Source: Gammaproteobacteria bacterium (GTDB lineage Bacteria; Pseudomonadota; Gammaproteobacteria; S012-40). From it: DNA of 64,000 bases. The stretch covers positions 15,791 through 79,790 of the forward strand of contig JAOUHV010000005.1 in NCBI GenBank assembly GCA_029884425.1. The letters are read 5' to 3'. Below are positions 5,874 through 55,634 of this stretch, in pieces; positions within the stretch are counted from its first letter, which is position 1, and each line of letters begins with the position of its first letter. The position numbers were made by a program, and so were the translations under genes. The notes under the pieces were generated by a model. That model ran no database searches, was not told the origin of the DNA, and saw nothing but the letters and a program-made list of their open reading frames with translations.

Positions 5874-5987
5874 GTCATTGTAGGCCGGGAGCTTTTCCCG
5901 GCCAAAATCCCTAATAAAATCCTGCCACTGGCCGCTAAACCTGTGTGAAACCGAATACTTGCGCGGGCATTTGGATTTTGTAGAAAA

Positions 5988-7619: not shown

Positions 7620-7680
7620 TATTTGGCGACCAGCCACATCTCACGTATCATAGCCACGTTTTTTCAACAGATACGTAGTT

Positions 7681-8232: not shown

Positions 8233-8234
8233 AC

Positions 8235-8993: not shown

Positions 8994-9102
8994 GTGGGCC
9001 GACAAACTGGCTGAAAATGCTGCAGAACCGTATAATGACGCCACTTTTGCGCCGCTTTGGATCGGCGCTCCGAATTTTTAGTACTCCACATAGGAAAGTT
9101 CA

Positions 9103-10107: not shown

Positions 10108-10126
10108 TTCGTTTTACGATTCCGCG

Positions 10127-10156
10127 AAAAACCCGGCCAAGCGCCGGGTTTTTTGC
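10127..10156 (+). terminator. Rho-independent terminator after fbp
   Basis: cccggc-caagc-gccggg stem followed by a T7 run. Confidence 0.7.
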
Positions 10157-10226
10157 TTTGTACGTATGCCGCGTTCGTTGAGTTTTATTTGCTTGCGCCG
10201 CTAACAAACAGAGTGATTCTGGGGCG

Positions 10227-10901: not shown

Positions 10902-10916
10902 TTCGTTAGCGTTGCT

Positions 10917-11956: not shown

Positions 11957-12012
11957 TGGATCAGTATGGAGTCATTATTGAAAGTTACCCTAACAAAAAA
12001 GCGTAGCTGTTG

Positions 12013-12052
12013 GCAAAAATAAAAAGGCCCTGATCATCAATCAGGGCCTTCT
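12013..12052 (-). terminator. Terminator downstream of groL (hairpin plus U-run on the minus strand)
   Basis: aaggccctgat...atcagggcctt inverted repeat flanked by A/T runs. Confidence 0.65.
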
Positions 12053-12079
12053 GTTAGGCGAGAGAAGCCTGGGGGCAGA

Positions 12080-13726
<1,647 letters not shown>

Positions 13727-26301: not shown

Positions 26302-27492
26302 ATGATGGACTACCAAACTTTGCTGGCAGTGTTAATTGGCGTGTACTGTCTTCAGGCGATGGCGCTGATTATCACCTGGTACCAAAGTCGGAATGAGGAC
26401 GGTACTCGCGAGTGGGCTGCGGGCGGGGTTTGCATGGCCGCAGGGGCGCTGGTGGTGTTGATTGCCAGCACGATTGCTCACGGCGAAGAAATCGGCCAGC
26501 GAATGGTGCCAGTGACCAGTGCCGGCATTGCGCTGATTGCAACCGGCTGGCTGTTTCTGTGGGCGGGGATACGCCGATTTGTTAATCACCTGGATTTTTC
26601 TTCACATTATCTGGGTCTATTTTTTGTCTTGTTCTATATCTTATTGTTACAACAGCAGTTTTTTACCCTGCCCCTCGGTTGGATTGTGTTCTGTCTGGCG
26701 ACAGTGGTGGCGATTGCCAGTAGCCTGATTTTGGCTGAACTCATGGTGAGCCGCGAGCGTGCAAGTTTGATCAGCCAGTTTATGATGCTGTGCTTTGGTT
26801 TGACGGCACTGCTGTGGGGCGGTCGGGCCGCGTTGGCGTTGCTGGACATGGCGCGGCCACTGGGGACCTTGTTTGATGGCTTGCTGATGTATCAGGCGGT
26901 GTTGGTGACGGTGGCGGTGACCTTGGGGATGATCCTGATGACCACCGAGCGGGTACAAAAGCATCTGCGTGAACAGGCCTCCATTGATTCCCTGACAGGT
27001 TTGTACAATCGTCGCGCATTTCATGATGTAAGTCGGGCAGTGATTGCTGCCGCCGAACGCGATAAACAGCCGGTGGCCTTGGCGCTGCTGGATCTGGATC
27101 ACTTCAAATCCATCAATGATACTTTTGGTCACGGCGTGGGTGACAAGGTGCTGATGCGCTTTGCCAATTTGGCCGAGCTGACTTTTCGTGACCAGGACAT
27201 CCTGGCTCGCTTCGGCGGCGAGGAATTTGTGGTATTGTTGTCCGGTGCGGACGCCGATCAGGCAATGCGCGCATTGCAGCGCCTCCGCCAACGTCTGGAA
27301 ACTGAGTGCATCGAATACCAAGGGGTTTGTGTGCCCAGTACCGTGAGCATAGGCGTGAGTTGTCGGCGTCGCGGAAAAATTGATTTGCATGCCATGCTGG
27401 AAGAAGCGGACAAGGCGTTGTACGACGCCAAGCGCGCCGGTCGTAACCAGGTCATTATGTATCACCTGGGGGATGCGGTGCCGGCAATATAG
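26302..27492 (+). CDS. Membrane-bound diguanylate cyclase (GGDEF) with a polytopic N-terminal sensor domain
   Basis: ~6 TM helices, then a GGDEF domain with active site GGEEF and I-site RDQD. Confidence 0.85.
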   Translation: MMDYQTLLAVLIGVYCLQAMALIITWYQSRNEDGTREWAAGGVCMAAGALVVLIASTIAHGEEIGQRMVPVTSAGIALIATGWLFLWAGIRRFVNHLDFSSHYLGLFFVLFYILLLQQQFFTLPLGWIVFCLATVVAIASSLILAELMVSRERASLISQFMMLCFGLTALLWGGRAALALLDMARPLGTLFDGLLMYQAVLVTVAVTLGMILMTTERVQKHLREQASIDSLTGLYNRRAFHDVSRAVIAAAERDKQPVALALLDLDHFKSINDTFGHGVGDKVLMRFANLAELTFRDQDILARFGGEEFVVLLSGADADQAMRALQRLRQRLETECIEYQGVCVPSTVSIGVSCRRRGKIDLHAMLEEADKALYDAKRAGRNQVIMYHLGDAVPAI

Positions 27493-32935: not shown

Positions 32936-34408
32936 ATGGTTCGTATTCTCCTGCTGCTGATGTTGCCGATCTCTGCCCTGGCATGGGACAGCATCGAGCA
33001 GTTGCCCATACCGGAAAGTCGGGCGATGGTGCCCCAGGAGCGTGGCACCTTCAATCAAGCGGTGACCGCAATGATGAGTGGCGACGATGCCACCGCACGC
33101 CAGTTGCTGGCGCCGATGGCGGCTTCCGGGATTACCGATGCGCAATTGTCGCTGGCTACCTTGTTATCGCGCTCGCAGGTAGAGGACGATCAAAAGGAAT
33201 CGGTTAAATGGTTCTATTTTTCCGCAAACGCTGGTGTGTGGCGTTCTCAGTTGGAAATGGCCAAAGCGTATCGGACAGGACGATATGTCGCCCAGGACAG
33301 ATTAAAAGCCTACAAATGGTTGGTGCGTGCTTTGCCCTTGGGGGGCATTGATGTTCTGCAGCAAATGGACGGGCTGGGCAAAGAGCTGTACGCAACCGCA
33401 ACGGCAGAGTTGGATAATGGCAAGACGGCGCGGGCAGTGGAAATACTGACGCCATTGGCAGAATCAGGAATGTTGCCAGCGCAAGAAAAACTGGCAGAAC
33501 TTTATGCCCAACCTCCCACCACTCAGGATAGGCGGCAAAAAATGCGGCTGTGGCTGGATAAGGCTGCCGCTCAAGGTTCACAGTCGGCGCAATATGCACT
33601 GGCGAACATGATTCTGACGATGCCAAGCACCGATGTTACAGAAAAAAATTACGCTATTTCGTTACTGGAAAAATCCGCCGCGCCCGGCAAGGCTGAAGCC
33701 CAATACCAGTTGGGGCGAATGTACATGACTGGCGATGGAGTGGCGAAAAACACCGAGAAAGGACTGTATTACTACCGAATTGCGGCTGAACAAGGTCATC
33801 GTGAGGCCCAGTACGCGTTAGGTGTGCGCTACACCTTGGGCGAGGGCGTTGCCAACGACGATTTCGAAGCCCACCGCTGGTTTAAGCAGGCTGCCAATGA
33901 AGGTCATGCCAAGGCGCAGTACAACCTTGCACTTAGCTATAAGCATGGGCTGGGAACGGCAGTACAGCCAGAAAAGGCGGACTACTGGTTTAAGAAAGCC
34001 GCAGCAGAAGGTCTGACGCGCGGTAACGATAGCAAGAAGGCAAAAAATTCAGATTTGACCAAGTTGCCGGCCGATGCCGGTAAAGGCACAAAAAAAAACT
34101 GGGTAGAGCAGGTGAACGGCGCTAAGTGGTTTGCTGCATTGCCCAAACAAGGTTTCACCATTCAGGTGGTGACAGGCAATGAAGCGGAAGCAATAAGGGC
34201 ATTCATTCAAAACAATAAGTTGGCTGAAAATAAATATTTTCACTACGTCCAGCATAGTGGCACCAATAGCCGTCATGTGGTGCAGTGGGGTTATTTCAGT
34301 AGCTACGAAGAAGCCAAAAAAGCGGCAATACAAATTTCCAAAGGTTATACCCAATTTAAGCCTTGGATCAGATCGGTCGACAGTGTCAAAAAGAGTCTGC
34401 ATAGCTAG
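32936..34408 (+). CDS. Secreted Sel1-like repeat (SLR) protein with a C-terminal SPOR (peptidoglycan-binding) domain; first gene of the stator/FliG-like operon
   Basis: Signal peptide MVRILLLLMLPISALA, multiple Sel1 repeats (AQYALGVRYTLGEGV, AQYNLALSYKHGLG...), C-terminal SPOR-like FTIQVVTGNEAEAIRAF...WGYFSSYEEAKKA. 19-nt gap to the motA-like gene. Confidence 0.7.
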   Translation: MVRILLLLMLPISALAWDSIEQLPIPESRAMVPQERGTFNQAVTAMMSGDDATARQLLAPMAASGITDAQLSLATLLSRSQVEDDQKESVKWFYFSANAGVWRSQLEMAKAYRTGRYVAQDRLKAYKWLVRALPLGGIDVLQQMDGLGKELYATATAELDNGKTARAVEILTPLAESGMLPAQEKLAELYAQPPTTQDRRQKMRLWLDKAAAQGSQSAQYALANMILTMPSTDVTEKNYAISLLEKSAAPGKAEAQYQLGRMYMTGDGVAKNTEKGLYYYRIAAEQGHREAQYALGVRYTLGEGVANDDFEAHRWFKQAANEGHAKAQYNLALSYKHGLGTAVQPEKADYWFKKAAAEGLTRGNDSKKAKNSDLTKLPADAGKGTKKNWVEQVNGAKWFAALPKQGFTIQVVTGNEAEAIRAFIQNNKLAENKYFHYVQHSGTNSRHVVQWGYFSSYEEAKKAAIQISKGYTQFKPWIRSVDSVKKSLHS

Positions 34409-34427: not shown

Positions 34428-35252
34428 GTGTTTATATCGTGGGACACCTTATTTGGAATGTTGGCAGGGTTCGGCCTGTTTGCCTTTGCCATTGTTTCAT
34501 CGACAGACAACGCAATGATTTTCTGGAGCGTGGCCAGCCTGGCGATGGTTATCGGTGGTACGTTTGCCTCGATCATTATTTCCTATCACTCGCGTTATGT
34601 GTTCAAAACATTTAAGGCGCTATTCGCGATGATGGTGCCCATGCAGGTTTCGCCAACAACATTGCTTGGTGATGTTAGGTTGCTGCTGGAGTGGAGTCAG
34701 GAAGTCAGACAAAACGGCACAGCGGTGTTGGATGACAAACTGGAAAATGCAAGCAACAAGATGGATGGCTTCACCAAATATGGTTTGCTATTGCTGACGA
34801 CGGGCTACAAGGGCGATGAGCTGCGTGAATTACTGGAAGAATTCAAAGAAACCATCTTTGAACGTGCACAAGTTCAGGTAGGCGTGCTGAAAACCATGGC
34901 GGCCTATGCGCCGGCATTTGGCATGATTGGTACGCTGGTTGGTTTGATCATTATGCTGGACAACTTGAAAGGGGATGTCAGCGGCTTGGGACAGGGGTTG
35001 GCACTGGCATTGATTACGACGTTATACGGTGTATTGGCAGCTAATCTGGTGTTTAAACCGGCGGCATTAAAAACCGACCAGAAAAACAATACTGCAAGAT
35101 TTAGAAATACATTAATGATCGAGGGTTTTGTGATGCTAAGTACCAAGACCGAGCCACTTAAGATGCAAGATAAATTGAATAGCTTTCTCGATCCCGAGTT
35201 GCATTTTGACATGCTCACTCCTGATGCCGGTAAAAAAGGGAAAAAGAAATAG
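34428..35252 (+). CDS. MotA/PomA-family stator protein (4-TM proton channel subunit), non-flagellar context
   Basis: Topology TM1-TM2, a ~110-aa charged cytoplasmic loop, then TM3-TM4 with PAFGMIGTLVGLI and ITTLYGVLAANL motifs. This matches MotA/PomA rather than the 3-TM TolQ/ExbB layout. Confidence 0.8.
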   Translation: MFISWDTLFGMLAGFGLFAFAIVSSTDNAMIFWSVASLAMVIGGTFASIIISYHSRYVFKTFKALFAMMVPMQVSPTTLLGDVRLLLEWSQEVRQNGTAVLDDKLENASNKMDGFTKYGLLLLTTGYKGDELRELLEEFKETIFERAQVQVGVLKTMAAYAPAFGMIGTLVGLIIMLDNLKGDVSGLGQGLALALITTLYGVLAANLVFKPAALKTDQKNNTARFRNTLMIEGFVMLSTKTEPLKMQDKLNSFLDPELHFDMLTPDAGKKGKKK

Positions 35253-35258
35253 CATCCT

Positions 35259-35975
35259 ATGTCGATTAAAAAACTGGGGCGTAGGCGCCGTGAACGCATG
35301 GAAAACAAGGATGAGGGTGAAGACTGGTTGCTTACCTATAGCGATACGGTCACGCTGATTATGACCTTCTTTGTGCTGATGCTGTCTGTGTCTACCATCG
35401 ATCAGGCAAAGTTCGATGCGGTTACCGAGGCGGTGAAAGAGCATGGTCTTTCCGGGAATGGCAAATATGTATCACCTTTTGAGGTTTTAAAAGAAAAAAT
35501 GGATCAGGTGACGACCAACTATCATCTGCAAAAAGACATGACGGTGGTACGAGAACCTAAGGGTTTGACTATCGAGTTGTCATCTTCAGCGCTGTATGAA
35601 GTAGGTAGTGCTGATATACAAGAAGAAGCCAAAAATGCCTTGAATGCTGTTGCTGAGGCCATCAAGAATTTTGAGTATCCACGCTATCGGATAGAAGTGG
35701 AAGGTCATACCGATGACGTGGCGATAAGTACACAGCGGTATCCATCCAATTGGGAATTGTCGGTACATCGTGCGACTAATGTGGTTCGTTATTTGACGCA
35801 GGAGGGCGTTCCACAAAGCAAGATGAAGGCTACAGGATATGCCGACACCAGACCTAAAGTGCCAAATTTGGACGACAACGGTGAACCAATTGCAGAAAAT
35901 CGGGCAATTAACCGAAGAATAGTTATACATGTGGAGCGTGACGACAACCCAGTCACCAAAGGGGATAAGAAGTGA
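35259..35975 (+). CDS. MotB/PomB-family stator protein with a C-terminal OmpA-like peptidoglycan-binding domain
   Basis: Basic N-terminus, single TM with the conserved Asp (LLTYSDTVTLIMTFFVLM), OmpA-like domain (NWELSVHRATNVVRYL...NRRIVI). Confidence 0.8.
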   Translation: MSIKKLGRRRRERMENKDEGEDWLLTYSDTVTLIMTFFVLMLSVSTIDQAKFDAVTEAVKEHGLSGNGKYVSPFEVLKEKMDQVTTNYHLQKDMTVVREPKGLTIELSSSALYEVGSADIQEEAKNALNAVAEAIKNFEYPRYRIEVEGHTDDVAISTQRYPSNWELSVHRATNVVRYLTQEGVPQSKMKATGYADTRPKVPNLDDNGEPIAENRAINRRIVIHVERDDNPVTKGDKK

Positions 35976-37090
35976 GTACGCAAACAACATATCACCAACG
36001 ACCGAATATGGTGCTGATGCTGATGATTGGTTTCGTTCTGCAAATGACCGTTTTTGGTGAGGTGCTGGCTGCTGAGACCGAAATCAAGCAGATCCGCTAC
36101 GGTGCACACAAGTCGGAAAATATGGCCTATGCCGATGAGTTAATGAAATTTAGTGAAATGCTGAATTCTGAGCAAATACTGTCGATGGCCGAATTGAATA
36201 AGATGGATTTCGCGGTTCGCTCGGTGGCGTTTTATCGCATTGGTGATCGACAGAATAAGTTGTTTGATCGTCATTTTTACGAAACGATCGAGCAGAAGAT
36301 GATTAACAAATTCACAGGTTTGAATCGTTTCTCCATACATGAATGTTTTGAATGTAAGACGACGCGGGTGTTGCTCAAGGAAAAGCAATTTTCAGTGCTT
36401 CGCCAATTGGATTCTAACGAGAGTCTAAAAGAGCTGGGTGAAAAAATAGGAGTAGATCACTTTATTCTGTGGGATGCCTACATGCACAAAGACAGCCCTA
36501 TGCTCAATATTCGTGTTGTGAGTGCGGCGAGTGGACAGGTTCGCTGGAGTCGGCAATATCAGGGTGAGCAGCAATTGCAAGAACTCAATTGGGAGTTTTA
36601 TACCTCGGTTTGGGGTGTTGAGGCGGTACGTCAAGCCAAAACAACGGCGAACTATGATTCTGTGGTTACGCCCATCATCGCGGTGGGTTTTCGTCGATTG
36701 GCAGAGTCGACGATTTCCAAGCGCTTATTCTACGGATATGGAGCTGAAGCTTTTTTTAACACCGAGGGACGCGCCGAAATTGATATATATGGTTTTGATG
36801 TTAACGGCCGCGTAGCGATTGAGTTGGATCCATCCCTGGGGATGGAAGATAAAACCTACGGTAACTGGTTGGCTTATTTTTCAGTGGGACAGGCATTTTT
36901 GTTGAATACGCCGACCCTGGTGATGCGTTCAGGTATCGAAATGCGGATCAATAAAAAGAGTTTTATCGATTTGGGAACGGTGACAATAAAAGAGAAAGAA
37001 TTTGAAGTGCGTGCCAATAGTAAATATGTCAGCAAGGCAACCATTGGCGGCACAAATTATGATCTAACCATTGGCTACCGATTTCAATGA
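35972..37090 (+). CDS. Secreted protein of unknown function, 372 aa, with a beta-rich C-terminal half
   Basis: Signal peptide; C-terminus ...NYDLTIGYRFQ is beta-strand-like. Translationally coupled to its neighbours by 4-nt overlaps. Confidence 0.45.
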   Translation: MSTQTTYHQRPNMVLMLMIGFVLQMTVFGEVLAAETEIKQIRYGAHKSENMAYADELMKFSEMLNSEQILSMAELNKMDFAVRSVAFYRIGDRQNKLFDRHFYETIEQKMINKFTGLNRFSIHECFECKTTRVLLKEKQFSVLRQLDSNESLKELGEKIGVDHFILWDAYMHKDSPMLNIRVVSAASGQVRWSRQYQGEQQLQELNWEFYTSVWGVEAVRQAKTTANYDSVVTPIIAVGFRRLAESTISKRLFYGYGAEAFFNTEGRAEIDIYGFDVNGRVAIELDPSLGMEDKTYGNWLAYFSVGQAFLLNTPTLVMRSGIEMRINKKSFIDLGTVTIKEKEFEVRANSKYVSKATIGGTNYDLTIGYRFQ

Positions 37091-37698
37091 GGATAGCAAT
37101 GATGAACAGAAAAAAATGGATAATTGGGCTGGCACTTCTGATGATATTGTCCGCATGCGGTACAACCGAAGAGCGACTGGATGCTGCTGAAAGTCAGGTA
37201 GCGGAATCATCGTCAGAAGAAGATTTGCCCGTGACACCCGAAGGAACGGCATTGACCAAGCAGCCAGGTATGATCAAGATTGAGCGGCACACACCAGGTT
37301 ACACCATCAGTATGATGCTGGATGCCACTGACGACAATGTATATTTTGTGATGGACTTGCCACCTGAGGAGCTGCAAAAGAATCAGGAGCCAGAGAATTC
37401 AAAGCAAACACCACAAAATAAGGCGTCCCAGTCGGTGCAAGACAATGGTTCTGGTGGTGCCAACAAACATGTCCTTTATGCCCAGACCTATTTTTTTGAA
37501 AAAAAATATGATCGCGCCATGAACGAAATAGATCGTTCGCTGGAAAAAGATCCAAACAATGCGGTGGCATATTCATTGAAAGGGTCGATCCACTATAAGC
37601 GTGGTGAAAAATCTAAAGCAGTACAGGCGTGGGAAAAGTCCCTGGAAATTGATCCAAACCAGGATAACGTCAAAAAAATGCTAAATAATCTGAAATAG
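37087..37698 (+). CDS. Outer-membrane TPR-repeat lipoprotein
   Basis: Lipobox LLMILSAC followed by G at +2; two C-terminal TPR repeats (YAQTYFFEKKYDRAMNEIDRSLEKDPNNAVAYSLKGSIHYKRGE...). Confidence 0.65.
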   Translation: MRIAMMNRKKWIIGLALLMILSACGTTEERLDAAESQVAESSSEEDLPVTPEGTALTKQPGMIKIERHTPGYTISMMLDATDDNVYFVMDLPPEELQKNQEPENSKQTPQNKASQSVQDNGSGGANKHVLYAQTYFFEKKYDRAMNEIDRSLEKDPNNAVAYSLKGSIHYKRGEKSKAVQAWEKSLEIDPNQDNVKKMLNNLK

Positions 37699-37712
37699 TT
37701 GGGTACGACACA

Positions 37713-39875
37713 ATGGCGTATTCGGTGAAGATAAGACTGGGTTCAATGCGGTGGCTGTTGCTGGGAATGATCGGCATGGTGTGGATGCCTGTGGCACAGC
37801 CGGAGGAAGAAACCCAGCGTGTTGCCGTAAGCCAGGTTGAGCAATCGCGATTTGACCGGGATCTTGAAGCCCGTTTAAGTCGAGACATTAAGGCATATTT
37901 GGATCACGATTTCTTTATCGTTCAAGCAAAATCTCTGCTGGAAAAATTAAACGCCTATGAAACCAGTAAGCAAAAAATAACCGTTCCGGTAGAACCATCG
38001 GCGCAGCAAGCCAAAGCGCAGCAGCAACAGGATGCAGCACGACAGGAGTTGCTGAATCAAATGGAGTTGGAAACAGAAGACGGCATTAATGCGCAAAATG
38101 CAGAGCAAGCCGAAGATGTGAGCGATCTTGCCTTGCCAGGCTTGCCAGTTTCAGAACAAACATTTGCACAGCAAACCAATGCGCAACAGAAACAACGTCA
38201 GGCTCAGAAACAGCCAATGATGTCGGCGCCGGTTCCACAAATGACCCCTGCATTTGAAACGCGTGAAGAAACCAAAAAAGAGTTGAAGGACTCGCGCATT
38301 GATATCAAACAATTGTCCGTCAAAGTGGTGTTGGATAATCATGTAACACCCGAGCAGGAAACGTTTATTCGCAATCTGGTAATTGAAAAAGCCAATGTGA
38401 ATTTTATCCGTGGCGATGAGTTACGGCTGGTCAGAACAAATTTTCCGGGTGCGACGGTGCTTGATCCCAAGCCTGTTGAAGAAAAGGCAGAAGATAAAGA
38501 AGAAAAATCAGTTGAGCCGGAAAAACCGCTGCCAACGGAGGCGGAGAAAGATGCACAACAGCGCGCACTGGCGTGGCTGGAACAATATTGGCCATATCTC
38601 GCAGCAATCTTAGCGCTGGTGTTGTTGTGGTTGATGTTGCGGCGCAACAATAAAGCTCAGACTAATGCCCCATCGGCTCAAACCACACCGGTGAGTGATT
38701 CCAAAGATAAGCTGGATGCATTTATCGAAAAATTGAGCTTTGCTCAGGATAATGTGGCCGACCAGAAATTGCGTGCACTACGCGAAGAGCTGGTGAGTAT
38801 GACGGTGACTGAGCGAAACCTGTTTACCGGGCAAATGGTGGATTGGTTGAATGCCGGCGGTCAGGAGGATGTGGCGCGTGTCGCGGCGGTAGTGAATCTC
38901 GTCGGTCCCGGCTTAATGGTAGGTTTGCTCAAGGGACAGATCGACGGCGAGAAATTAATGGGCCTGTTGGCCATGGCTGAGGAGTTGGCGCGGGATAATT
39001 CGCCATCTGAGTTGATGGAAAAAGTTGAACAGGCCTATCAAACCCTGGCACGTCGGCGCTTGCAGGAAAATATTACTGAGGAACATAAAATTCGGCCGTT
39101 CGATTTCCTTGAGCGCTTGAATGATGATCAAATTCTGTATTTGTTAAATGACGAGCGTATGCCTGTGCGTGCGTTGGTTTATTCGCAATTGCCAGCGGAG
39201 CGTGCAGCTGGATTGCTCAAGCGCATTGGTGGTGATGATCGTGCCGCCTTGGCCATGGAAATCAGTCGTTTTTCGCATTTGCCGGCAGCATCGTTCCGCG
39301 ATATCGCAAATCGTTTGGCGCGCAAGGCAGTGGATGTGCCCAGCTTTGCCAATATTGCGGTGGATGGCGTGGATGTGCTTATCGGCATGCTGGATCATCT
39401 CGATAGTTCTGAGGAAACAGCATTGTTGCTCAACGTCCGTCAGACCAATCCCGATTTGTACTATCGCATCAAGCAGGTGTACATCAGCTTTAATGATCTG
39501 GTGAGCTTGCCTACATTGGCGCTGAAGAATTTGATTCGCGAAGTCAGTCGCGAGGATTTGGCGATGGCTTTGCACGATGTTGACGATACTTTCCGTGATA
39601 CGATTCTGGCTTCTATGCTTGAGCGGCCGCGTGCCATGCTGGTTGCTGCGATCCGGGACTTGAAGGATGTGAATCCGCTGGCAGTGAATGAAGCCAAGCG
39701 CAAGGTAGCGCGCCGCGCCCGCTCCATGCTCAAAGCCGGTGAATTTAAATTGCCGTCGCCAGAAGCCAAAACCGCACAATCGACGCCTAAGCCCAAAGCG
39801 GCAACGGCTGAGGCTCCGTCAGGCAAGCCCGCGCCGCCTGCACCTCCTCCCCCGCAAGCGCCACCATCCAAATAA
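37713..39875 (+). CDS. Two-TM inner-membrane protein with a FliF-RBM3-like periplasmic segment and a cytoplasmic full-length FliG-like (N/M/C) module: a candidate minimal FliF-FliG-fusion-like rotor protein
   Basis: TM1 at ~aa 13-27; periplasmic aa 28-292 with a Gln/Ala-rich region and IDIKQLSVKVVLDNH...RGDELRLVRTNFPG (compare FliF IERLSVAVVVNY...RGDTLNVVNSPF); TM2 LAAILALVLLWLML; FliG_M-like IRPFDFLERLNDDQILYLLNDERMPVRALVYSQLPAERAAGLL; FliG_C-like FNDLVSLPTLALKNLIREVSREDLAMALHDVDDTFRDTILASMLERPRAMLVAAIRDL...; Pro-rich tail. Confidence 0.6.
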   Translation: MAYSVKIRLGSMRWLLLGMIGMVWMPVAQPEEETQRVAVSQVEQSRFDRDLEARLSRDIKAYLDHDFFIVQAKSLLEKLNAYETSKQKITVPVEPSAQQAKAQQQQDAARQELLNQMELETEDGINAQNAEQAEDVSDLALPGLPVSEQTFAQQTNAQQKQRQAQKQPMMSAPVPQMTPAFETREETKKELKDSRIDIKQLSVKVVLDNHVTPEQETFIRNLVIEKANVNFIRGDELRLVRTNFPGATVLDPKPVEEKAEDKEEKSVEPEKPLPTEAEKDAQQRALAWLEQYWPYLAAILALVLLWLMLRRNNKAQTNAPSAQTTPVSDSKDKLDAFIEKLSFAQDNVADQKLRALREELVSMTVTERNLFTGQMVDWLNAGGQEDVARVAAVVNLVGPGLMVGLLKGQIDGEKLMGLLAMAEELARDNSPSELMEKVEQAYQTLARRRLQENITEEHKIRPFDFLERLNDDQILYLLNDERMPVRALVYSQLPAERAAGLLKRIGGDDRAALAMEISRFSHLPAASFRDIANRLARKAVDVPSFANIAVDGVDVLIGMLDHLDSSEETALLLNVRQTNPDLYYRIKQVYISFNDLVSLPTLALKNLIREVSREDLAMALHDVDDTFRDTILASMLERPRAMLVAAIRDLKDVNPLAVNEAKRKVARRARSMLKAGEFKLPSPEAKTAQSTPKPKAATAEAPSGKPAPPAPPPPQAPPSK

Positions 39876-39880
39876 CCGCA

Positions 39881-39909
39881 AAGAGAGCTATTGGCTCTCT
39901 TTGTTTTTG
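39881..39909 (+). terminator. Rho-independent terminator ending the stator/FliG-like operon
   Basis: aagagagc-tattg-gctctctt hairpin plus a T-run. Confidence 0.7.
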
Positions 39910-40241
39910 GGCGAATAAAATCTTTTGATATCACGCAGATAAAAGCGCTTTGCTAAAAAGCGGGCAATAGTGGCAAATGCGTCACAAAATATACTCTGCC
40001 GAAAGCGTAGGATAACCCATTGTATTTATAGAAAAAAAATTTCTCCGTAGATCAAATATTAATTTTGTCACACATATTAAGCTTTGTATTACAAAAGTTG
40101 TTGAAAAAACGGTCGATGCAGTATTAAGGCCCGCTTTCTGCAGATGTAACTGTTGGACTGAACAAGGATTTGGCAATTTTGTCTGTCTGAATGTTGCACA
40201 TTAACGGCGCTGAACCCAGGACGGTGACTCGTACTCTGTGA

Positions 40242-41480
40242 TTGTTAATTGGACTGTCTATGTCAAAAGCTAGCAAACCTGTGATCCATAGGTTGCGGTG
40301 CTGCGTTTTAGTGGCATTGCTGGCTTTGCCGTTGCTCAGTTGGGCGGAGGACCGGGTGATGTCAGTCTATACGATGGGAGCTGTGACCATCCTGCCAAGT
40401 GTAGGCCTGGAATACCGGCATGACGATAATATTTTTTCCGCCAACCAGGGTCAGAAGGCATCTGATGTAGGTGTAGCAAATTCGAGCATTGCCGCCAAAA
40501 TCAGCAATGATATTAGCGAGGGCGCGCTGTTGTACTCGGTAGAGAAAGGCACTTATCAAAGCAGCCCCGAGGATGACTATCTGGATCAGCGAGCAGGACT
40601 TGGTTTTCATCATGCGTTTCGGCGATGGGCCATCATTGATCTCGCGTTAGGGCAAGATCAGTTGCACGAAGCGCGTGGGCAAGGTTACAGCCAGGGTAAA
40701 GCTGATTTACTGCCAGCGCCGGATTTATATGTCACAGATACGGCGAATTTCCTGTTTCGGCTGGGGACGCGGCGATCACAAGGTATGTTTGAATCGCAAT
40801 TGGCGGGAACTTCGCTGCGCTATACCACACGTGAGGCACAAACCGCGGGCCGGAATAACGATTACATTTCCGGACGACTGACCTACCATTTTAATCTTTC
40901 CAGCAAAACCAGTTTGCTCGCAGAAACGCGTTATGGGCAGTACGACTACATCAACGAAACCTCGCTCATTCGTCGTGACAGCAGTGAGCAGCACTATTAT
41001 CTCGGGTTGTCGTGGGAGCTCAGTAGTCTTAGTCGAGGTTCCATCAGAGTCGGACAGCAAAAAAAGATATTTGTTGATCAGGCATTGATGGCGGATAGCA
41101 GCAATAGTTGGGAAATGAAGCTGTTCTGGAAGCCAACACCACTGGCGAGCATCAAATTCGGTACGTCTGCAAAAAATCAGGAAAGTGTGGGAATGGGCAG
41201 TCATGTTTACAGTGAGGCTGGATTTTTCGCGATCAAAAACTCACTGACCAAGCGGTTGGGCATGGATATGAGTACGCAAATCACCAAGAACAGCTATCGC
41301 CCAAGCGGACGCAACGAGCTGTTGGGAGCAGTTGCAGCCAAAGTGATTTATAGCTCGAATCGCTGGATACATCTAGATTTCGGCATAGATCATGAACAAC
41401 GTAGAAGTGACCAGGCGATGATGAATTATCGCCGAAGCATCGTCAGCATGGGGATTCGAATCAGTCCGAAAGATGATTAA
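40242..41480 (+). CDS. Outer-membrane beta-barrel protein, putative partner of the short Wza-like exporter
   Basis: Signal peptide, alternating amphipathic beta-strand pattern throughout. 8-nt overlap with the downstream Wza-like gene. Confidence 0.5.
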   Translation: MLIGLSMSKASKPVIHRLRCCVLVALLALPLLSWAEDRVMSVYTMGAVTILPSVGLEYRHDDNIFSANQGQKASDVGVANSSIAAKISNDISEGALLYSVEKGTYQSSPEDDYLDQRAGLGFHHAFRRWAIIDLALGQDQLHEARGQGYSQGKADLLPAPDLYVTDTANFLFRLGTRRSQGMFESQLAGTSLRYTTREAQTAGRNNDYISGRLTYHFNLSSKTSLLAETRYGQYDYINETSLIRRDSSEQHYYLGLSWELSSLSRGSIRVGQQKKIFVDQALMADSSNSWEMKLFWKPTPLASIKFGTSAKNQESVGMGSHVYSEAGFFAIKNSLTKRLGMDMSTQITKNSYRPSGRNELLGAVAAKVIYSSNRWIHLDFGIDHEQRRSDQAMMNYRRSIVSMGIRISPKDD

Positions 41481-42225
41481 GCCAAACGTAGCACGGATAT
41501 GGATTGGGATATGGCTGTGCTTGCTGGTGGCAAGTGCTGGTGCGTTTGATCGCGCCTACACATTGGGTACCGGTGATGTAGTGTCTATTCAGGTATTTGG
41601 TGAACCGGAATTAAGCCTGCAATTGCGCATTGATGACAGTGGAAATATTGCCTATCCCCTGTTGGGAGAGTTACCCATCGCTGGTCAGACATTGAATGGA
41701 CTGGAACAAATTTTGATTACTCGCCTTAAAGGTGGCTATCTGATCGATCCCAAAGTCAGTGTGTCGGTGATCGAATATCGGCAGTTTTTCATAAATGGCG
41801 AAGTCAGCAAGCCCGGAGGGTATCCATACATTCCCGGTTTGACTTTGCGCAAGGCGATTGCTCTTGCCGGCGGCATGACTGAATTGGCGTCGGTTGATCG
41901 TATTACCTTGATTCGTGAACACGATGTATCACGCACCGAAGTTTCAGTAGATATGGAAGCCAAGGTATTGGCTGGCGATATCATTACGGTTAAAGAATAT
42001 AAAAAAATATTTATTCATGGCGAAGTAAGGAAACCGGGAAGCTATGGTTATAGCCCTGACTTGACCGTGAGAAAAGCGATCGCGTTGGCTGGCGGTTTAA
42101 CTGAGCGAGGTTCGGAAGGCAAGGTGACATTGCAGCCGGACAACGGAACAGGAAAGCGCGTCGAATTGCTGGACGAAAAAGTGACCCCCGGGGATTTAAT
42201 AACCGTTGGTGAACGGTTTTTTTGA
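41473..42225 (+). CDS. Short Wza-like periplasmic polysaccharide export protein (Poly_export plus SLBB domains, no C-terminal OM helix)
   Basis: 250 aa with signal peptide, a PES motif region and duplicated SLBB (ITLIREHD.../KVTLQPDNG...). Lacks the Wza D4 helix. Confidence 0.85.
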   Translation: MIKPNVARIWIGIWLCLLVASAGAFDRAYTLGTGDVVSIQVFGEPELSLQLRIDDSGNIAYPLLGELPIAGQTLNGLEQILITRLKGGYLIDPKVSVSVIEYRQFFINGEVSKPGGYPYIPGLTLRKAIALAGGMTELASVDRITLIREHDVSRTEVSVDMEAKVLAGDIITVKEYKKIFIHGEVRKPGSYGYSPDLTVRKAIALAGGLTERGSEGKVTLQPDNGTGKRVELLDEKVTPGDLITVGERFF

Positions 42226-42234
42226 GGGATGTAG

Positions 42235-44391
42235 GTGAAAAAACAGGATCATGCACGGCAGGAGCAGCCTGACGACGAGATCGACCTGCGCGAATATTGG
42301 CGAGTAATTAATCGACGCAAGTGGTCGATATTGGCGTTCGCCGGTAGTGTTTCACTGATTACCACGTTGGTGGTCTATTCTTTATCCCCGATATATCAGG
42401 CGACAGCGACTGTATTGATCGAATCGCCACAAAAAAATGCGACCAGTTTGGAGGAGGTTTATGGACTGGAACGAGTCGGCAATGAGTTTTTCAAAACCCA
42501 AGTCGAGATACTGAAATCCCGCGAATTGGTTGATCGAGTTGTCGGTGAACTAGGGCTGTTGGAGAATCCTGAATTTTCCATGAAAAACAATAATGGATAT
42601 CGGGAGAAGTTAGCATCTATTCTTCCATTTCTCCATCAGCCAGAGAAGGAATTAACAGTTGAAGAGCGGAAAAATGAGATTGTTCGTAGCATCTCGAGTA
42701 GTTTGAATGTTTCTGATATTCGCGGTACCCAGCTTGCCAAAGTTAGTTTTGAAAGCCATGACCCGGTGATGGCAGCCAAAGTAGCTAATAAATTTGTCGA
42801 TGCCTACATTGAGTACAATTTTGATATTCGTCTGGCAGCCCGAGACAAGTCATTGGCATGGTTAAATGAACGGTTGGGGCCGCTTAAAAATTCGTTGTCT
42901 GAGTCAGAAAAAAAGCTGCAGCAATATCGTGAACAGCAAGGGTTGGTGGATGTCGAGGGTGTCAGGAGTCTGGTAGCCAAAGAATTGAATGAAATCACCG
43001 TGGATTTTGTTGAAGCCAGGACAAAGCGGGCGCAGCTGGAAAACGTGCTTCAACAAATTGGAAATGGTGATGAATGGATCAACAATCCGACGATACTAAA
43101 TCACCCTGCGATGCAGAAATTGATTGGTCAGCGGGCCGATGCAGAGCAGCAGTTGTCCGAATTGGGGAAAAGGTATGGGGCAAAGCATCCGAAAATGGTT
43201 GCGGCACAGAACCAGCTTCTGGCCGTTCAGAAAAATATGCAGCAGCAGCTTTCAGGTGTGGTTGAAAGCATTAAAAAGGATTACCTGATAGCAAAAAATA
43301 ATGAAAATTCGCTACAAAAAAACATGGATAAAGTAAAGGAAGAAGTCCAGGATATAAATCGCAAGGAGCATCAGCTTAATGAGCTTGTGCGAGAGGTGGA
43401 TGCCAATCGCAAAGTATATGAGTCATTTTTAACCCGGTTTCAGCAAACGGGAGCACTTGGAAGTTATGATCAGGTGAATATTCGTTTGGCTGAAGCTGCG
43501 GCCGTCCCTATTTCTCCATCAAAGCCTAACAAAAAACTTATTATCGCACTGTCATTTATGGCAAGTATTATGTTGGCTGTTATGGCTGCTTTCTTTCTTG
43601 AGTTTATCAATAACGGTGTTCGCCGGATTGAAGATGTTGAAAATAAATTGTCGCAGCGATTGCTGGGTATTGTTCCCCAGGTTGCGGTTGATGATGAAAG
43701 CAGACTAAAACCAGAGAGCATATTTTCGGATGAAAATCTTCGTTCTATGGCGGAGTCAATGCGTGCCGTGAGAACGGCCATGTGTCGTTCAGGTGCGGAA
43801 AAATCCAAAATTATTTTGGTCACATCCTCTTTGCCTGGCGAGGGGAAGACGACGGTGTCATGCGCGCTTTCCTATGCATTCGCGCAGATTGAAAGGGTGC
43901 TGTTGATTGATGCGGATATGCGGAAGCCATCGGTTAGTAAACTATTTTCCATTCCGCATAAGCATAGGGGCTTGAGCAATCTGATTGTTGGTGAGCCCAA
44001 TGTTAGGGATTGTTTTTTAGTGCAGCCAAATGCCAATCTGACGGTTGTTCCATCTGGGGTTGTTCCTGCAAATCCATCGGAGCTTCTATCTAGCGATCGG
44101 TTTGCTATGATGCTGAAAAAATTGGCGAAACATTACGATCGAATAATTATTGACTCACCACCGATTCATGCAGTCAGTGATGCACTGATTATTTCTCGTC
44201 TGGTGGATGAGGTGGTGTATGTCGTTAAATCGGATGCGACGCCCTTGCCGGTTGTGAAGGAAGGTATTGCCCGTTTGCAGCAGGCGGATGTCAAAATGGC
44301 CGGGGTTGTTCTGAATCATTTTAACGTACGAGAGGCTGATTACTATCAGTACTACTATGGCAGTTACGACTACACTACAGCAAAGAGCTAG
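42235..44391 (+). CDS. Wzc-like polysaccharide co-polymerase / BY-family tyrosine autokinase
   Basis: Wzz-like N-domain with two TMs and a coiled-coil periplasmic region, Walker A SSLPGEGKTT, Walker A'/B, C-terminal Tyr cluster YYQYYYGSYDY. Confidence 0.88.
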   Translation: MKKQDHARQEQPDDEIDLREYWRVINRRKWSILAFAGSVSLITTLVVYSLSPIYQATATVLIESPQKNATSLEEVYGLERVGNEFFKTQVEILKSRELVDRVVGELGLLENPEFSMKNNNGYREKLASILPFLHQPEKELTVEERKNEIVRSISSSLNVSDIRGTQLAKVSFESHDPVMAAKVANKFVDAYIEYNFDIRLAARDKSLAWLNERLGPLKNSLSESEKKLQQYREQQGLVDVEGVRSLVAKELNEITVDFVEARTKRAQLENVLQQIGNGDEWINNPTILNHPAMQKLIGQRADAEQQLSELGKRYGAKHPKMVAAQNQLLAVQKNMQQQLSGVVESIKKDYLIAKNNENSLQKNMDKVKEEVQDINRKEHQLNELVREVDANRKVYESFLTRFQQTGALGSYDQVNIRLAEAAAVPISPSKPNKKLIIALSFMASIMLAVMAAFFLEFINNGVRRIEDVENKLSQRLLGIVPQVAVDDESRLKPESIFSDENLRSMAESMRAVRTAMCRSGAEKSKIILVTSSLPGEGKTTVSCALSYAFAQIERVLLIDADMRKPSVSKLFSIPHKHRGLSNLIVGEPNVRDCFLVQPNANLTVVPSGVVPANPSELLSSDRFAMMLKKLAKHYDRIIIDSPPIHAVSDALIISRLVDEVVYVVKSDATPLPVVKEGIARLQQADVKMAGVVLNHFNVREADYYQYYYGSYDYTTAKS

Positions 44392-44397
44392 GCGATT

Positions 44398-45090
44398 GTG
44401 TTTGTAGGAAAGATGAAAAAAATCGTAATTGTATTTGTCATGGTTTTCATCGCATATGTTGTCGTTCAGGCGAGTCGAATATTTTTAAGCAGTGCCAATG
44501 CATCCAGTGTTTACGCCCAGATTGCTTATTTGGAGTCCAAGCCATCGGTAGATGGCTTTCAGTGGCAAACTTTGGCGGAGAAGCTAAGTTTTTCACGTTG
44601 GCTGAATGGGGATAGCCCAGATTATCGTGATGTAGAGCAAATGCTTCTGCTGCGGTCGGGTGAAGTGCGGCCTGGAAGTGTCCTGGAGCAATATCGATTA
44701 CTGCTCAGGCAGCGGCCTTCGTGGCCCTATGCATGGTTAAATCTTCTGGTAGCCAAAGGTCACGCCAAAGAGTTTGATGAAGAATACCATCACGCCTGGG
44801 CGCGGCTGGCGGTGTTGGCACCGTGGGTCAAAAAAGTGAATGCCGCACTTCTGGTGGAAGGTTTGCGTGATTGGGATGAATTGGACGACGCTACCCGTGC
44901 ATTGGTAGTCGATGTTGTCGCAAACGGCTTGTCTATGCATCCCTCAATTGTCGACGTACAGTTGAAAGAATATCAACGGAGGTTCCAGCTTTGTGCGGAA
45001 CTGGAGGTAAATCAACGCGCCGTGCTGTCATGCACTGACGATGCATCATTCGATGCCGTTTTATCAACAGGCGACGAAGCGCATGAGTAG
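44398..45090 (+). CDS. Hypothetical membrane-anchored protein, 230 aa
   Basis: N-terminal TM; no recognisable motif. Confidence 0.35.
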   Translation: MFVGKMKKIVIVFVMVFIAYVVVQASRIFLSSANASSVYAQIAYLESKPSVDGFQWQTLAEKLSFSRWLNGDSPDYRDVEQMLLLRSGEVRPGSVLEQYRLLLRQRPSWPYAWLNLLVAKGHAKEFDEEYHHAWARLAVLAPWVKKVNAALLVEGLRDWDELDDATRALVVDVVANGLSMHPSIVDVQLKEYQRRFQLCAELEVNQRAVLSCTDDASFDAVLSTGDEAHE

Positions 45091-46564
45091 TCCTTATTTC
45101 TCTCATGAACGATGTGGTGTTGAGAAAGCGATTTTTACATTGCTGCTGGTCGTTTTGTTTATTGCGCCATGGCCACTGGGAAGTAATCGGGATTGGGCAT
45201 GGCCGGTGATTTCTGTCTTGCTGGCGATTGCCGCCTTGCTCTATGTTTGTTTTTACGGTATTTGCTTCACGGCCAGTGCGGCGCTGCGACAGGCGCGCTG
45301 GGCTGTTGCTTGTTTTTTGTTGCTCATTATCTGGCAAGTGCTGCAATCGTTGCCATTACCTACTGCTTGGATAAATGCTCTGTCGACTGGTGCGGCACAA
45401 CTTTATTTGGCAACAGATGCGCGACTGGAAAATGTGCCGTTATCGCTTGACGCTTATGCGACGTCGCTGGCTTGGATGAAGACGCTGACTTATGTGCTGA
45501 TGTTTGTGTTGTTGTTGCAACTGACAACCAATCGAACTCGTCTTCAATGGTTGTTTGGGGTGGTGGTGATCAGTGGCTTGTTGCAGGCGTGTTATGGCAG
45601 TTTAATGGCGTTGACCGGCGCGTCTCAGGGTGTCTTTATTCAAAATAATGATGTTTCATCAGCCACAGGCAGTTTTGTGAATCGCAATCATTTTGCGGGG
45701 TTCCTAGGTTTGTGTCTGGCAATGGGCACGGGCTTGTTGGTGGCAAAATTATCAACGACACCGGCAACAAATTTGCGCCAGTTTGCGCGCCAATCCCTTG
45801 TTACATTGCTGGGTGAAAAGGCGCGTCTACGCCTAGCGCTGGCGATGATGGTGATTGCATTGGTGCTGAGTCACTCCCGAATGGGGAATAGCGCATTTTT
45901 TATCAGTTTGTTGCTGACGAGTGTGCTGGCGTTGGTAGTGCTGTGGTGGCGACGCAAGCGCAATGGCAATCGGCGACATCATCGTCACTGGCGACCGGTG
46001 ATATGGCTAGTGACCAGTTTGATGGTGATTGACATTGCGATTGTTGGTGCATGGTTTGGGGTCGATCGAGTGGTTGAGCGCTTGCAAAATACCTCCATGC
46101 AGACTGAGTCCAGGGATGAGGTTAATCAGTACGGAATGGCGGTGCTGGAGGATTATTGGCTCACTGGGGTGGGCGGCGGAGCCTATTACGTGGTGTTACC
46201 AGGCTATCAAGATGAGAAATTCACTGGATTTTATGACCAAGCTCACAATGATTACCTGCAGTTTGCCATAGAACTGGGGGTGCCGGCCGCTATAGTTTTG
46301 GCAATGGTGGTGTTTTTGGCGCTGGCGGCGGCTTTGAAGGCGCTGTTGTTGCGCCGTTCCACGTTTTATTTTGGGGTGGCATTTGCAGGATTTATGGCTG
46401 TTTCGGGTTTATTGATGCACTCATTTGTCGATTTCAATTTGCAGATTCCTGCCAATGCGCTTTATTTTGTGACTGCGTTGGCGTTGTGTTTTATCGCTGA
46501 AACACTGGAGTCGAAGCGCTACCATCGTGGCGATGTGCCCACCCATGGAGAGCATTCATCATGA
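45083..46564 (+). CDS. O-antigen ligase / Wzy_C-family polytopic membrane protein (polymerase or ligase-like)
   Basis: ~10 TMs, FVNRNHFAGFLGLCLA and SHSRMG loop motifs typical of the Wzy_C family. An alternative upstream ATG lies at 45041. Confidence 0.65.
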   Translation: MSSPYFSHERCGVEKAIFTLLLVVLFIAPWPLGSNRDWAWPVISVLLAIAALLYVCFYGICFTASAALRQARWAVACFLLLIIWQVLQSLPLPTAWINALSTGAAQLYLATDARLENVPLSLDAYATSLAWMKTLTYVLMFVLLLQLTTNRTRLQWLFGVVVISGLLQACYGSLMALTGASQGVFIQNNDVSSATGSFVNRNHFAGFLGLCLAMGTGLLVAKLSTTPATNLRQFARQSLVTLLGEKARLRLALAMMVIALVLSHSRMGNSAFFISLLLTSVLALVVLWWRRKRNGNRRHHRHWRPVIWLVTSLMVIDIAIVGAWFGVDRVVERLQNTSMQTESRDEVNQYGMAVLEDYWLTGVGGGAYYVVLPGYQDEKFTGFYDQAHNDYLQFAIELGVPAAIVLAMVVFLALAAALKALLLRRSTFYFGVAFAGFMAVSGLLMHSFVDFNLQIPANALYFVTALALCFIAETLESKRYHRGDVPTHGEHSS

Positions 46565-55439: not shown

Positions 55440-55634
55440 TCAGGTGTCGTTGCTCTGTGGAGGAGCGTGCTGATCCAGATTCGGGGTTTCGTTGGTCGGT
55501 ATTTTGTAACTTTCGTCTGCCCAGGCGCCCAGGTCAATAAGCTTGCAGCGTTGGCTGCAGAATGGTCGCCACTTGGATTGATTATTCCAGGCAACATCCT
55601 GTCCGCAATGAGGGCACTGAACAATGGTGGTCAT
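55440..55634 (-). CDS. yacG: DNA gyrase inhibitor YacG (zinc finger)
   Basis: CPHCGQ...[17 protein letters not shown]. Confidence 0.85.

Follow-up and report, generated by a model that had tools for sequence, protein, structure and literature searches.

Two outer-membrane-directed proteins encoded with a flagellar-type stator and a FliF-FliG fusion: candidate parts of a motor module that looks to lack a flagellum

Introduction

To our knowledge, no flagellar-type stator and no FliG has been described outside the flagellum. Non-flagellar relatives of the stators, such as ExbBD, TolQR, AglRQS, GldLM, and ZorAB, belong to other stator clades and work with other partners. In a published survey, flagellar stators are treated as a single clade that is exclusively flagellar (PMC12505986). 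In this work, we describe a cluster of six genes, here called A to F, found in a 64,000-nucleotide stretch of gammaproteobacterial DNA (contig JAOUHV010000005.1 of assembly GCA_029884425.1, positions 15,791 to 79,790; this whole stretch is referred to below as the window). The cluster joins a flagellar-type MotAB stator (genes B and C) to a membrane-anchored FliF-FliG fusion (gene F) and to two private outer-membrane proteins (genes D and E), with no export, rod, hook, or switch genes. It looks like an undescribed flagellar-type motor module without a flagellum, and full-text literature searches returned no description of a D-E-F-MotAB cluster. The MotV/MotW proteins (PMC8789113), considered as a possible description of it, turned out to be unrelated. 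We focus on D and E, which an initial annotation, made from the sequence alone, had presented as envelope proteins and structural partners of the machine.

Organization of the locus

The six open reading frames (ORFs) of the cluster lie between 32.9 and 39.9 kb of the window, tightly packed and in one direction (Table 1). The two ORFs that had been annotated as D and E both exist with the extents and start codons given there, and they are not chance reading frames, as full-length homologues with 37-80% identity occur in unrelated genomic contexts. The stem-loop and T-run behind the F stop codon indicate that the transcription unit ends before the polysaccharide-export genes located further downstream.

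The GTG start of D overlaps the stop codon of the MotB-like gene (GTGA, 35972-35975), is preceded by an AGGGGA Shine-Dalgarno-like site, and results in a signal peptide with an Arg-containing n-region. The public gene call for D (P0001, 360 aa) begins at Met13 and has neither of these features. The first ATG of E overlaps the D stop codon in the same manner (ATGA, 37087-37090). Because a GAGGA site at 37089-37093 has the ideal spacing to two further in-frame ATG codons, at 37099 and 37102 (5 or 8 nt downstream of it), the true start of E is probably one of these, 9-12 nt past the D stop and without any 4-nt overlap. The public call for E (P0106, named ‘tetratricopeptide repeat protein’ by NCBI, 185 aa) starts inside the signal peptide and thereby hides the lipobox context. 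Between E and F there are 14 nt (37698 to 37713). In public gene calls for the orthologous loci, the spacing at the C-D, D-E, and E-F junctions varies between -29 and +79 nt; tight packing is conserved, and the 4-nt overlap is not. The initial annotation had D and E each overlapping their neighbors by 4 nt, which is correct in the window for C/D and, from the first ATG, for D/E, but the E start is doubtful, F does not overlap E, and the overlaps are not kept in other loci. For gene A, the listed ORF begins at TTG 32882, and ATG 32936 yields the signal peptide MVRILLLLMLPISALA.

Table 1. Genes and features of the cluster, in positions of the window.
Feature	Position	Strand	Description
Gene A	32936..34408	+	Secreted; Sel1 repeats and C-terminal SPOR (peptidoglycan-binding); first gene of the operon
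Gene B	34428..35252	+	MotA/PomA-type stator subunit
Gene C	35259..35975	+	MotB-type stator subunit; plug and OmpA-like peptidoglycan-binding domain
Gene D (target 1)	35972..37090	+	372 aa, GTG start; signal peptide, FlgO/LpoB-like periplasmic domain, C-terminal 8-stranded beta-barrel
D signal peptide	35972..36070	+	Residues 1-33; predicted cleavage after VLAA
D periplasmic alpha/beta domain	36080..36571	+	Residues ~37-200; FlgO/LpoB/TolB-N-type fold
D conserved block	36338..36421	+	HECFECKTTRVLLKEKQFSVLRQLDSNE; holds CxxC (C125, 36344-36346; C128, 36353-36355)
D outer-membrane beta-barrel	36590..37084	+	Residues ~207-371; beta-signal YDLTIGYRF(Q)
Gene E (target 2)	37087..37698	+	203 aa from first ATG; outer-membrane lipoprotein, two flexible tethers, beta motif, C-terminal tetratricopeptide repeats
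E lipobox L-S-A-C	37147..37158	+	Cys 37156-37158; Gly at +2
E conserved motif	37267..37362	+	GMIKIERHTPGYTISMMLDATDDNVYFVMDLP; ~30 residues, three short beta strands
E C-terminal tetratricopeptide repeat domain	37450..37695	+	Five helices
Gene F	37713..39875	+	Inner-membrane; FliF-like RBM3b segment, transmembrane helix, FliF-like tail, FliG middle and C-terminal domains
Intrinsic terminator	39879..39910	+	AAAGAGAGC-tattg-GCTCTCTTT then GTTTTTG, directly 3' of the F stop

Gene D encodes a FlgO-like domain joined to a beta-barrel

The D family is small, with 21 relatives found among 5.8 billion proteins, all of them from uncultured Gammaproteobacteria. D orthologues carry signals of the signal peptidase I type and no lipobox, and in all 11 of those compared the N-terminus has a hydrophobic stretch that closes with an AxA-like site. 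In the alignment of close homologues, the signal peptide is followed by an N-terminal half that contains the invariant block HECFECKTTRVLLKE, while the C-terminus forms a classical outer-membrane beta-signal, ...YDxTxGxRF, with GxRF or GxRY closing 18 of the 19 full-length sequences. D had been annotated as a secreted protein with a beta-strand-like C-terminus, and this description is confirmed and made more precise by the signal peptide and the true outer-membrane beta-signal. The window copy is the only one to end in ...GYRFQ, where an extra Q makes the Phe penultimate and the beta-signal is not strictly C-terminal (37082-37090).

A model of D built with AlphaFold2 from the family alignment (mean predicted local distance difference test score, pLDDT, 77.7) consists of an alpha/beta domain at residues ~37-200 and a beta-barrel at residues ~207-371, and its Foldseek matches include OmpA, Ail, LpoB (TMt 0.66), and TolB. 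The C-terminal half combines the eight-stranded antiparallel barrel fold with a beta-signal ending in an aromatic residue, as in OmpA-like proteins, and the preceding domain has the fold of the LpoB C-domain. Structure prediction followed by a Foldseek search, the check suggested along with the initial annotation, thus resolves D into a domain of the FlgO/LpoB/TolB-N type and an OmpA-like barrel. The earlier statement that neither D nor E resembles a nameable protein is valid at the level of orthology, since scans of Pfam and NCBIfam gave no family that covers D, and does not hold at the level of fold.

In these scans, D had no match to Pfam FlgO (PF17680) at E<=0.01, none to Pfam LpoB, and none to Pfam OMP_b-brl, which is matched by just 3 of 40 distant relatives; a search of PDB sequences with the D profile gave nothing significant. 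A DUF3389 match (Pfam; 20.8 bits over 27 residues) is below the cut-off and was discarded as noise. Among 1.84 billion cluster representatives, the D profile detects 78 relatives, 23 of them below 1e-30, and 40 of the more distant ones, when scanned against Pfam, were matched by FlgO (10 sequences), LpoB (4), and CsgG (3). P0067, one of the relatives, was found by the D profile at E 2.9e-7 and passes the Pfam FlgO cut-off (31.6 bits vs 22.6); hhalign aligns it with the D family over D residues 39-194 at a probability of 98.1% (E 8e-14), and its own CxxC (ECxxC) stands at the same position as that of D. The corresponding match to E. coli LpoB, at 66.8%, is weaker than this FlgO-type link. The profile comparisons indicate that D is a remote homologue of FlgO-type domains; it is considered no orthologue of FlgO, LpoB, or OmpA because of the lipobox, the profile thresholds, and the gene context, all of which separate it from them.

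Over 32 sequences, reaching down to 21% identity, only C125, C128, W167, W192, and G321 of D are invariant. The block at residues 121-150 shows the highest conservation (0.85-0.91) and the lowest model confidence (pLDDT 38-60). Since it is conserved and yet modeled with low confidence, it is a candidate interface, as is the segment at residues 61-90 of E for the same reason, and its CxxC motif likely marks a partner contact, an oligomerization surface, or a metal or disulfide site.

The D profile also matches a wider set of uncharacterized proteins over the N-terminal periplasmic domain, including P0048 (768 aa), P0058 (647 aa), and P0067 (544 aa; L023 8001-9635). Some members of this set match in two or three stretches, and weak outer-membrane-barrel matches occur in P0058 and P0067.

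Gene E encodes a lipoprotein with a short tetratricopeptide repeat domain

The E family is about as rare as that of D, with 19 homologues at E<=1e-5 among the 5.8 billion proteins (21 close homologues for D). The lipobox is retained in 11 of 11 E orthologues, and the residue at position +2 is G, M, S, or A, never Asp. In the alignment, a variable linker is followed by a near-invariant beta motif, an acidic linker of variable length, and a conserved domain of tetratricopeptide repeats (TPRs). The consensus of the motif in 19 sequences is GMIxIERHTxxYxISMxLDAxDxNVYFVMDLP, with invariant G, I, R, I, D, A, D, N, F, M, D, L, and P positions. In the AlphaFold2 model, both linkers are disordered and the strands of the motif have pLDDT values of 52-60, while the five C-terminal helices, modeled with pLDDT above 92, correspond to 2.5 near-consensus TPRs. 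Pfam TPR_2 recognizes two stretches of this domain at 43.8 bits (cut-off 27). The earlier reading of E as an outer-membrane-type lipoprotein with an LSAC lipobox, Gly at +2, and two TPRs is therefore upheld, and E has the combination that characterizes TPR outer-membrane lipoproteins, namely a lipobox with a residue other than Asp at +2 plus TPR repeats.

The NCBIfam equivalogs that came closest to E all scored below their cut-offs (PrsT, 42 bits vs 312; PilW, 40 vs 154; Tgl, 19 vs 225), and judged by sequence E belongs to no named TPR lipoprotein family among PilF/PilW, PrsT, Tgl, BamD, and LpoP. We infer that the beta motif is a docking motif. The TPR domain is close to the EEVD-binding TPRs of Hop, Tom70, and SGT, and the periplasmic loop of F contains a conserved acidic motif; a carboxylate-clamp reading of the domain was kept as a lead only, as it has two repeats and not three.

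The FliF-FliG fusion, the stator, and gene A

F carries both FliG domains above the Pfam cut-offs (FliG_C, 68.8 bits; FliG_M, 43.4 bits), and the profile of its family finds FliG (1lkv) at E 4.5e-30 and FliF (6scn) at E 0.0026. Upstream of the FliG domains, F is collinear with FliF from RBM3b through the second transmembrane helix (TM2) to the C-terminal tail, with the RGD motif kept, and hhalign supports this alignment to residues 373-550 of E. coli FliF at a probability of 94.5%. At the position of the FliF beta-collar there is a long, low-complexity periplasmic loop, rich in Q, P, and E, in which ‘SQMELETEDGI’ and ‘PLPGLP’ are conserved. F is thus membrane-anchored, unlike soluble FliG with its FliG_N domain, and the full FliG equivalog, TIGR00207, is not reached (82.8 vs cut-off 226.7). 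The equivalent of R281 of the torque helix is retained, while conservation of the EHPQ motif, which binds FliM, is lost. As judged from these alignments, F represents a naturally occurring FliF(RBM3b-TM2-tail)-FliG(M,C) fusion and is the putative rotor or energy-receiving subunit.

B and C are recognized by Pfam MotA_ExbB (76 bits) and by MotB_plug (63 bits) and OmpA (71 bits), respectively. Their best NCBIfam matches are MotP/PomA/MotA and MotD/MotS, all under the equivalog cut-offs, so that no named flagellar stator equivalog is reached (MotP, 147 bits vs 394; MotD, 172 vs 283). The channel Asp (D32 of E. coli MotB, D29 in C) is invariant in all orthologues, and B orthologues keep equivalents of E. 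coli MotA R90 (as R or K), E98 (as D or E), P173, and P222. B and C form a flagellar-type stator, which by these conserved residues looks functional.

Gene A matches Pfam Sel1 (118 bits) and SPOR (31.5 bits). An identity with MotX was rejected, as the score of 49 bits against a cut-off of 330 reflects generic Sel1 similarity, and matches to MerG, ExoR, and AlgK were set aside likewise. Orthologues of A head the cluster in L001, L002, L005, L008, L009, L015, L016, L027-30, and L040.

D and E are inherited together with the stator and the fusion

Gene linkage was assessed in both directions, from loci reached through D homologues and from loci reached through F, which together gave about 30 loci in several gammaproteobacterial lineages. 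In all loci reached from D, the genes D, E, and F are adjacent and in the same order. In 20 metagenome loci reached from F, E and then D lie directly upstream wherever the contig extends that far, with MotAB on one side or the other. Two arrangements recur. Type 1, with the order A-B-C-D-E-F, is found in several lineages of metagenome-assembled genomes (MAGs) with unrelated flanks. Type 2, with the order D-E-F-MotA-MotB, lacks A, which is confined to type 1, and is carried by more distant D homologues, for example in the complete genome of Moritella sp. 28, in a Saccharospirillaceae/Pseudomonadales MAG, in a Legionellales MAG, and in others; the cluster therefore occurs in cultured Moritella, where it is placed at about 2.721-2.727 Mb of CP056121.1 (Moritella sp. 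28/5/36). No further conserved neighbor gene was found around the type 2 clusters, whose flanks are unrelated. The outgroup protein P0067, which combines a FlgO-like CxxC domain with a barrel, has no Mot or FliG neighbors in its locus (L023).

A scan of a genome collection with a narrow D alignment reached 4 species representatives only, and no D was found in the plasmid and phage collections searched. No other flagellar gene is present in the 64-kb window or beside any of the ~30 loci, and the rest of the window consists of housekeeping genes.

Co-conservation with the Mot/FliG-like genes had been set beforehand as the point on which a partnership of D and E with the machine would stand or fall. 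D-E-F proved to be adjacent in every informative locus, and MotAB is clustered with them in all but one (L011). Because of this co-conservation, D and E are regarded, from genome comparison, as dedicated partners of the MotAB/F module, inherited as one unit with an apparently functional stator and the FliF-FliG fusion.

In two loci, surface-protein genes neighbor the module. In L011, D-E-F is followed (7303-12639) by a TraF_2/PorP-SprF-like outer-membrane protein, a 583-aa unknown protein, and a PKD-repeat protein; in L022, an invasin/intimin-type beta-barrel (IAT_beta) lies after MotB (5129-6868). These neighbors may hint at a surface-related output.

A proposed envelope module and the evidence that bears on it

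Signals, the lipobox, and the modeled barrel indicate that D and E are both directed to the outer membrane. Taken together with the gene linkage, this makes it reasonably probable, in our judgment, that D and E serve as the outer-membrane-tethered scaffold or anchor of a rotor-type envelope module with the core D-E-F-MotA-MotB, to which A is added in the lineage of the window. In such a module, MotAB would be a flagellar-type, ion-driven stator anchored to peptidoglycan, and the cytoplasmic FliG C-domain of F would receive force from MotA. F would oligomerize through its FliF-like RBM3 segment, probably building an inner-membrane ring. D would be fixed in the outer membrane by its eight-stranded barrel, with the FlgO/LpoB-type domain hanging into the periplasm and the CxxC block as a likely contact or oligomerization surface. 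E would be held by its lipid in the inner leaflet of the outer membrane. Its beta motif could dock near the membrane, most simply on D, and its TPR domain, on an acidic flexible tether, could extend over the periplasm and bind a partner, for which the conserved acidic and Pro motifs in the periplasmic loop of F, or MotB or A, are candidates. Together, D and E might do for this machine what FlgO/FlgP/FlgT (H-ring), MotX/MotY (T-ring), and PflA/PflB do around flagellar motors. Physical contacts, ring formation, and rotation are features that we infer for the module.

A stronger version of this proposal, in which the whole is a stand-alone envelope machine, rotary or at least driven by MotAB, without a flagellum, with a FliF-FliG fusion ring turned by flagellar-type stators and coupled to its own outer-membrane module of D and E, is put forward only tentatively. 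The initial description of D and E as stoichiometric structural partners of the machine fared in a mixed way: both are envelope proteins aimed at the outer membrane and linked by their genes to the Mot/FliG-like genes, but the term ‘stoichiometric’ was derived from the 4-nt overlaps, which are not conserved.

Several observations weigh against a scaffold around a rotor. L011 has D-E-F and no MotAB in the 12.6 kb available (a short contig). F has lost the acidic pair D288/D289 of the torque helix, and the formation of a ring by F is based on a partial RBM3 match, in which only the RBM3b half is aligned confidently and the beta-collar is replaced by the low-complexity loop. D is below the Pfam FlgO threshold and is no lipoprotein, which FlgO is, and the TPR matches of E are generic. 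Moreover, a rotor and a stator that are both tied to the wall or the outer membrane could not turn, so that a scaffold role would require that D and E do not lock F.

Comparison with flagellar rings and outer-membrane barrels

In Vibrio, the H-ring contains FlgO and FlgP, ring proteins anchored in the outer membrane, FlgO being lipidated at Cys16, and MotX/MotY hold PomB (10.64898/2025.12.02.691832). The likeness of the present cluster to the H- and T-rings lies in outer-membrane-anchored periplasmic proteins that are encoded with, and would be assembled around, a MotAB/PomAB-driven rotor. It extends to the periplasmic domain of D, remotely homologous to the FlgO-type domain, and to A, whose Sel1 repeats recall MotX and whose peptidoglycan-binding domain recalls MotY. 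In contrast to FlgO and FlgP, which are lipoproteins of ~150-200 aa, D has an integral 8-stranded barrel and a CxxC block, and its cluster is located outside the flagellar regulon, with no LP-ring, rod, or type III secretion system to surround. The analogy with H/T-ring accessory lipoproteins drawn in the initial annotation is thus supported by the fold of the D periplasmic domain (FlgO/LpoB/CsgG-type, with remote homology) and has to be given up in one respect, as D is an integral barrel protein and not a lipoprotein.

In Campylobacter, PflA and PflB, both TPR proteins, keep MotB dimers in place, and a lipoprotein disk lies under the outer membrane (PMC11870540). E resembles these components in joining a lipid anchor with a TPR module (cf. 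the TPRs of PflA/PflB and the basal-disk lipoprotein FlgP), but PflA and PflB have at least 17 TPRs and are not lipoproteins, whereas E has 2.5, and there is no sequence relation beyond the repeat. Compared with barrels of the OmpA/OmpX/Ail/OprF-N group, D has the domain order of OmpA reversed, the periplasmic domain coming first, and it lacks both the OmpA_C peptidoglycan-binding domain and a Pfam OMP_b-brl match.

The likeness of F to the MS-ring and C-ring consists in its joining FliF RBM3b-TM2-tail to the M and C domains of FliG. Engineered FliF-FliG fusions form rings (PDB 8z4d). F differs from the flagellar proteins in the absence of RBM1, RBM2, the beta-collar, EHPQ, and D288/D289, and no FliM/FliN or export-gate genes accompany its cluster.

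Alternative explanations

The cluster could also be a trans-envelope link energized by the proton-motive force (PMF) in the manner of Tol-Pal or the Lpo proteins, with MotAB acting like TolQR, F acting like TolA through its periplasmic loop, and D and E forming the outer-membrane end that is pulled or signaled, the outcome being outer-membrane tethering or constriction, or control of septal peptidoglycan synthesis. Like Tol-Pal, the cluster encodes in one operon, for an assembly that would span the envelope, a PMF motor of the 5:2 type with an inner-membrane transducer, along with a TolB-N-type domain in a periplasmic protein, a lipoprotein of the outer membrane, and a protein with TPRs. The LpoB/TolB-N fold of the D periplasmic domain, with its hhalign match of 66.8% to E. 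coli LpoB, and the periplasmic part of F, dominated by a long low-complexity loop in which short motifs are conserved, would suit such a link, as would the peptidoglycan-binding domain of MotB and the SPOR domain of A. SPOR domains bind denuded septal glycan; A, and hence SPOR, is nevertheless absent from type 2 clusters. Likewise, the LpoB-like build of D and the LpoP-like build of E lend modest support overall, but TPR and TolB-N-like folds are common and the matches unspecific, D has a barrel and no lipobox, and LpoB and LpoP, lipoproteins of the outer membrane that activate PBP1B, both lack a linkage to Mot or FliG genes. The mode of coupling speaks for a rotor, as here it would involve the FliG C-domain in the cytoplasm, which is known from rotor rings alone, and not a transmembrane helix. 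F also retains the rotor-specific, ring-building RBM3b segment of FliF with its RGD motif, the stator belongs to the flagellar clade, with a plug and FliG-contact residues, and Pfam and NCBIfam scans gave no TolA, TolB propeller, or Pal domains. We consider a Tol- or Lpo-like link rather unlikely.

Three other explanations appear weaker. D and E might be accessory parts of an ordinary flagellum, as extra H-/T-ring or stator-scaffold proteins that are encoded outside the flagellar regulon with a spare stator and a FliG paralogue. The FlgO-type domain of D, the scaffolding of stators by TPR and Sel1 proteins in Vibrio and Campylobacter, and a stator of flagellar (MotP/PomA/MotD-like) type all agree with this, and Moritella is a flagellated genus. 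F, however, is anchored by its own FliF-like segment and lacks EHPQ and therefore cannot fit a normal C-ring, the five genes move as a single unit, and the absence of other flagellar genes from the window and the ~30 loci adds to making this improbable. A service of D and E to polysaccharide export, or to another surface-polymer or adhesin pathway, with shared regulation as the only link to Mot/FliG, would account for the EpsL-like barrel, Wza/EpsE-like, Wzc-like, VpsP-like, and Wzy_C genes that follow the cassette in the window and for the surface-protein genes 3' of the module in L011 (PorP/TraF-like, PKD) and L022 (invasin-type barrel). It is very improbable in view of the terminator between F and the export genes, the unrelated flanks of other loci, where no flanking gene is conserved, and the eight strands of the barrel, which, going by its fold matches, has no export pore. 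Finally, anti-phage defense of the Zorya kind also uses a MotAB-type motor: ZorAB are MotAB homologues, and the MotB of the window matches ZorB models at E 1e-19. This similarity of C is generic to ZorB and MotB, MotA has no ZorA match, and D, E, and F match no PADLOC model; with no ZorA and no ZorC/D (or E/F/G) effector set by PADLOC, no nuclease or helicase effector, a stator that has the flagellar plug and FliG-contact residues, housekeeping genes at its flanks, and D absent from plasmids and phages, a Zorya defense system was rejected as having next to no likelihood.

Significance of the module

If the reading as a stand-alone rotary or MotAB-driven machine is true, the module would represent a new class of bacterial nanomachine, in which the torque core of the flagellum is reused for another job at the cell surface or wall. 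The cluster could also serve as a reduced model for the way in which a rotor, a stator, and a periplasmic scaffold are fitted to one another, and its presence in cultured Moritella makes it accessible to genetics and cryo-tomography. The target of the machine would be revealed by D and E. Each of these two proteins defines a new family, with a FlgO-like CxxC domain fused to a barrel in the case of D and a mini-TPR lipoprotein with a conserved, putative docking motif in that of E.

Other features of the window

Downstream of the terminator, at 40242-46564, lies a polysaccharide-export locus with genes for an EpsL-like outer-membrane barrel, a Wza/EpsE-like exporter, a Wzc-like tyrosine kinase, a VpsP-like protein, and a Wzy_C/O-antigen-ligase-like protein. 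Its adjacency to the cassette is not conserved in other genomes. A GGDEF diguanylate cyclase gene (26302-27492) is located a few kb upstream of the cassette, and another is found upstream in L009; it is not a consistent neighbor.

On the minus strand, at 55631-57136, one 501-aa ORF carries both CoaE (dephospho-CoA kinase) and ZapD (cell-division) domains, which in E. coli are encoded by separate neighboring genes. This ORF could be a fusion or an artifact of assembly or frameshift. Over the whole window (1-64000), nearly all 2-kb bins have a positive GC skew and the cumulative skew climbs steadily, a pattern consistent with a single replichore and with neither an origin nor a terminus inside the window.

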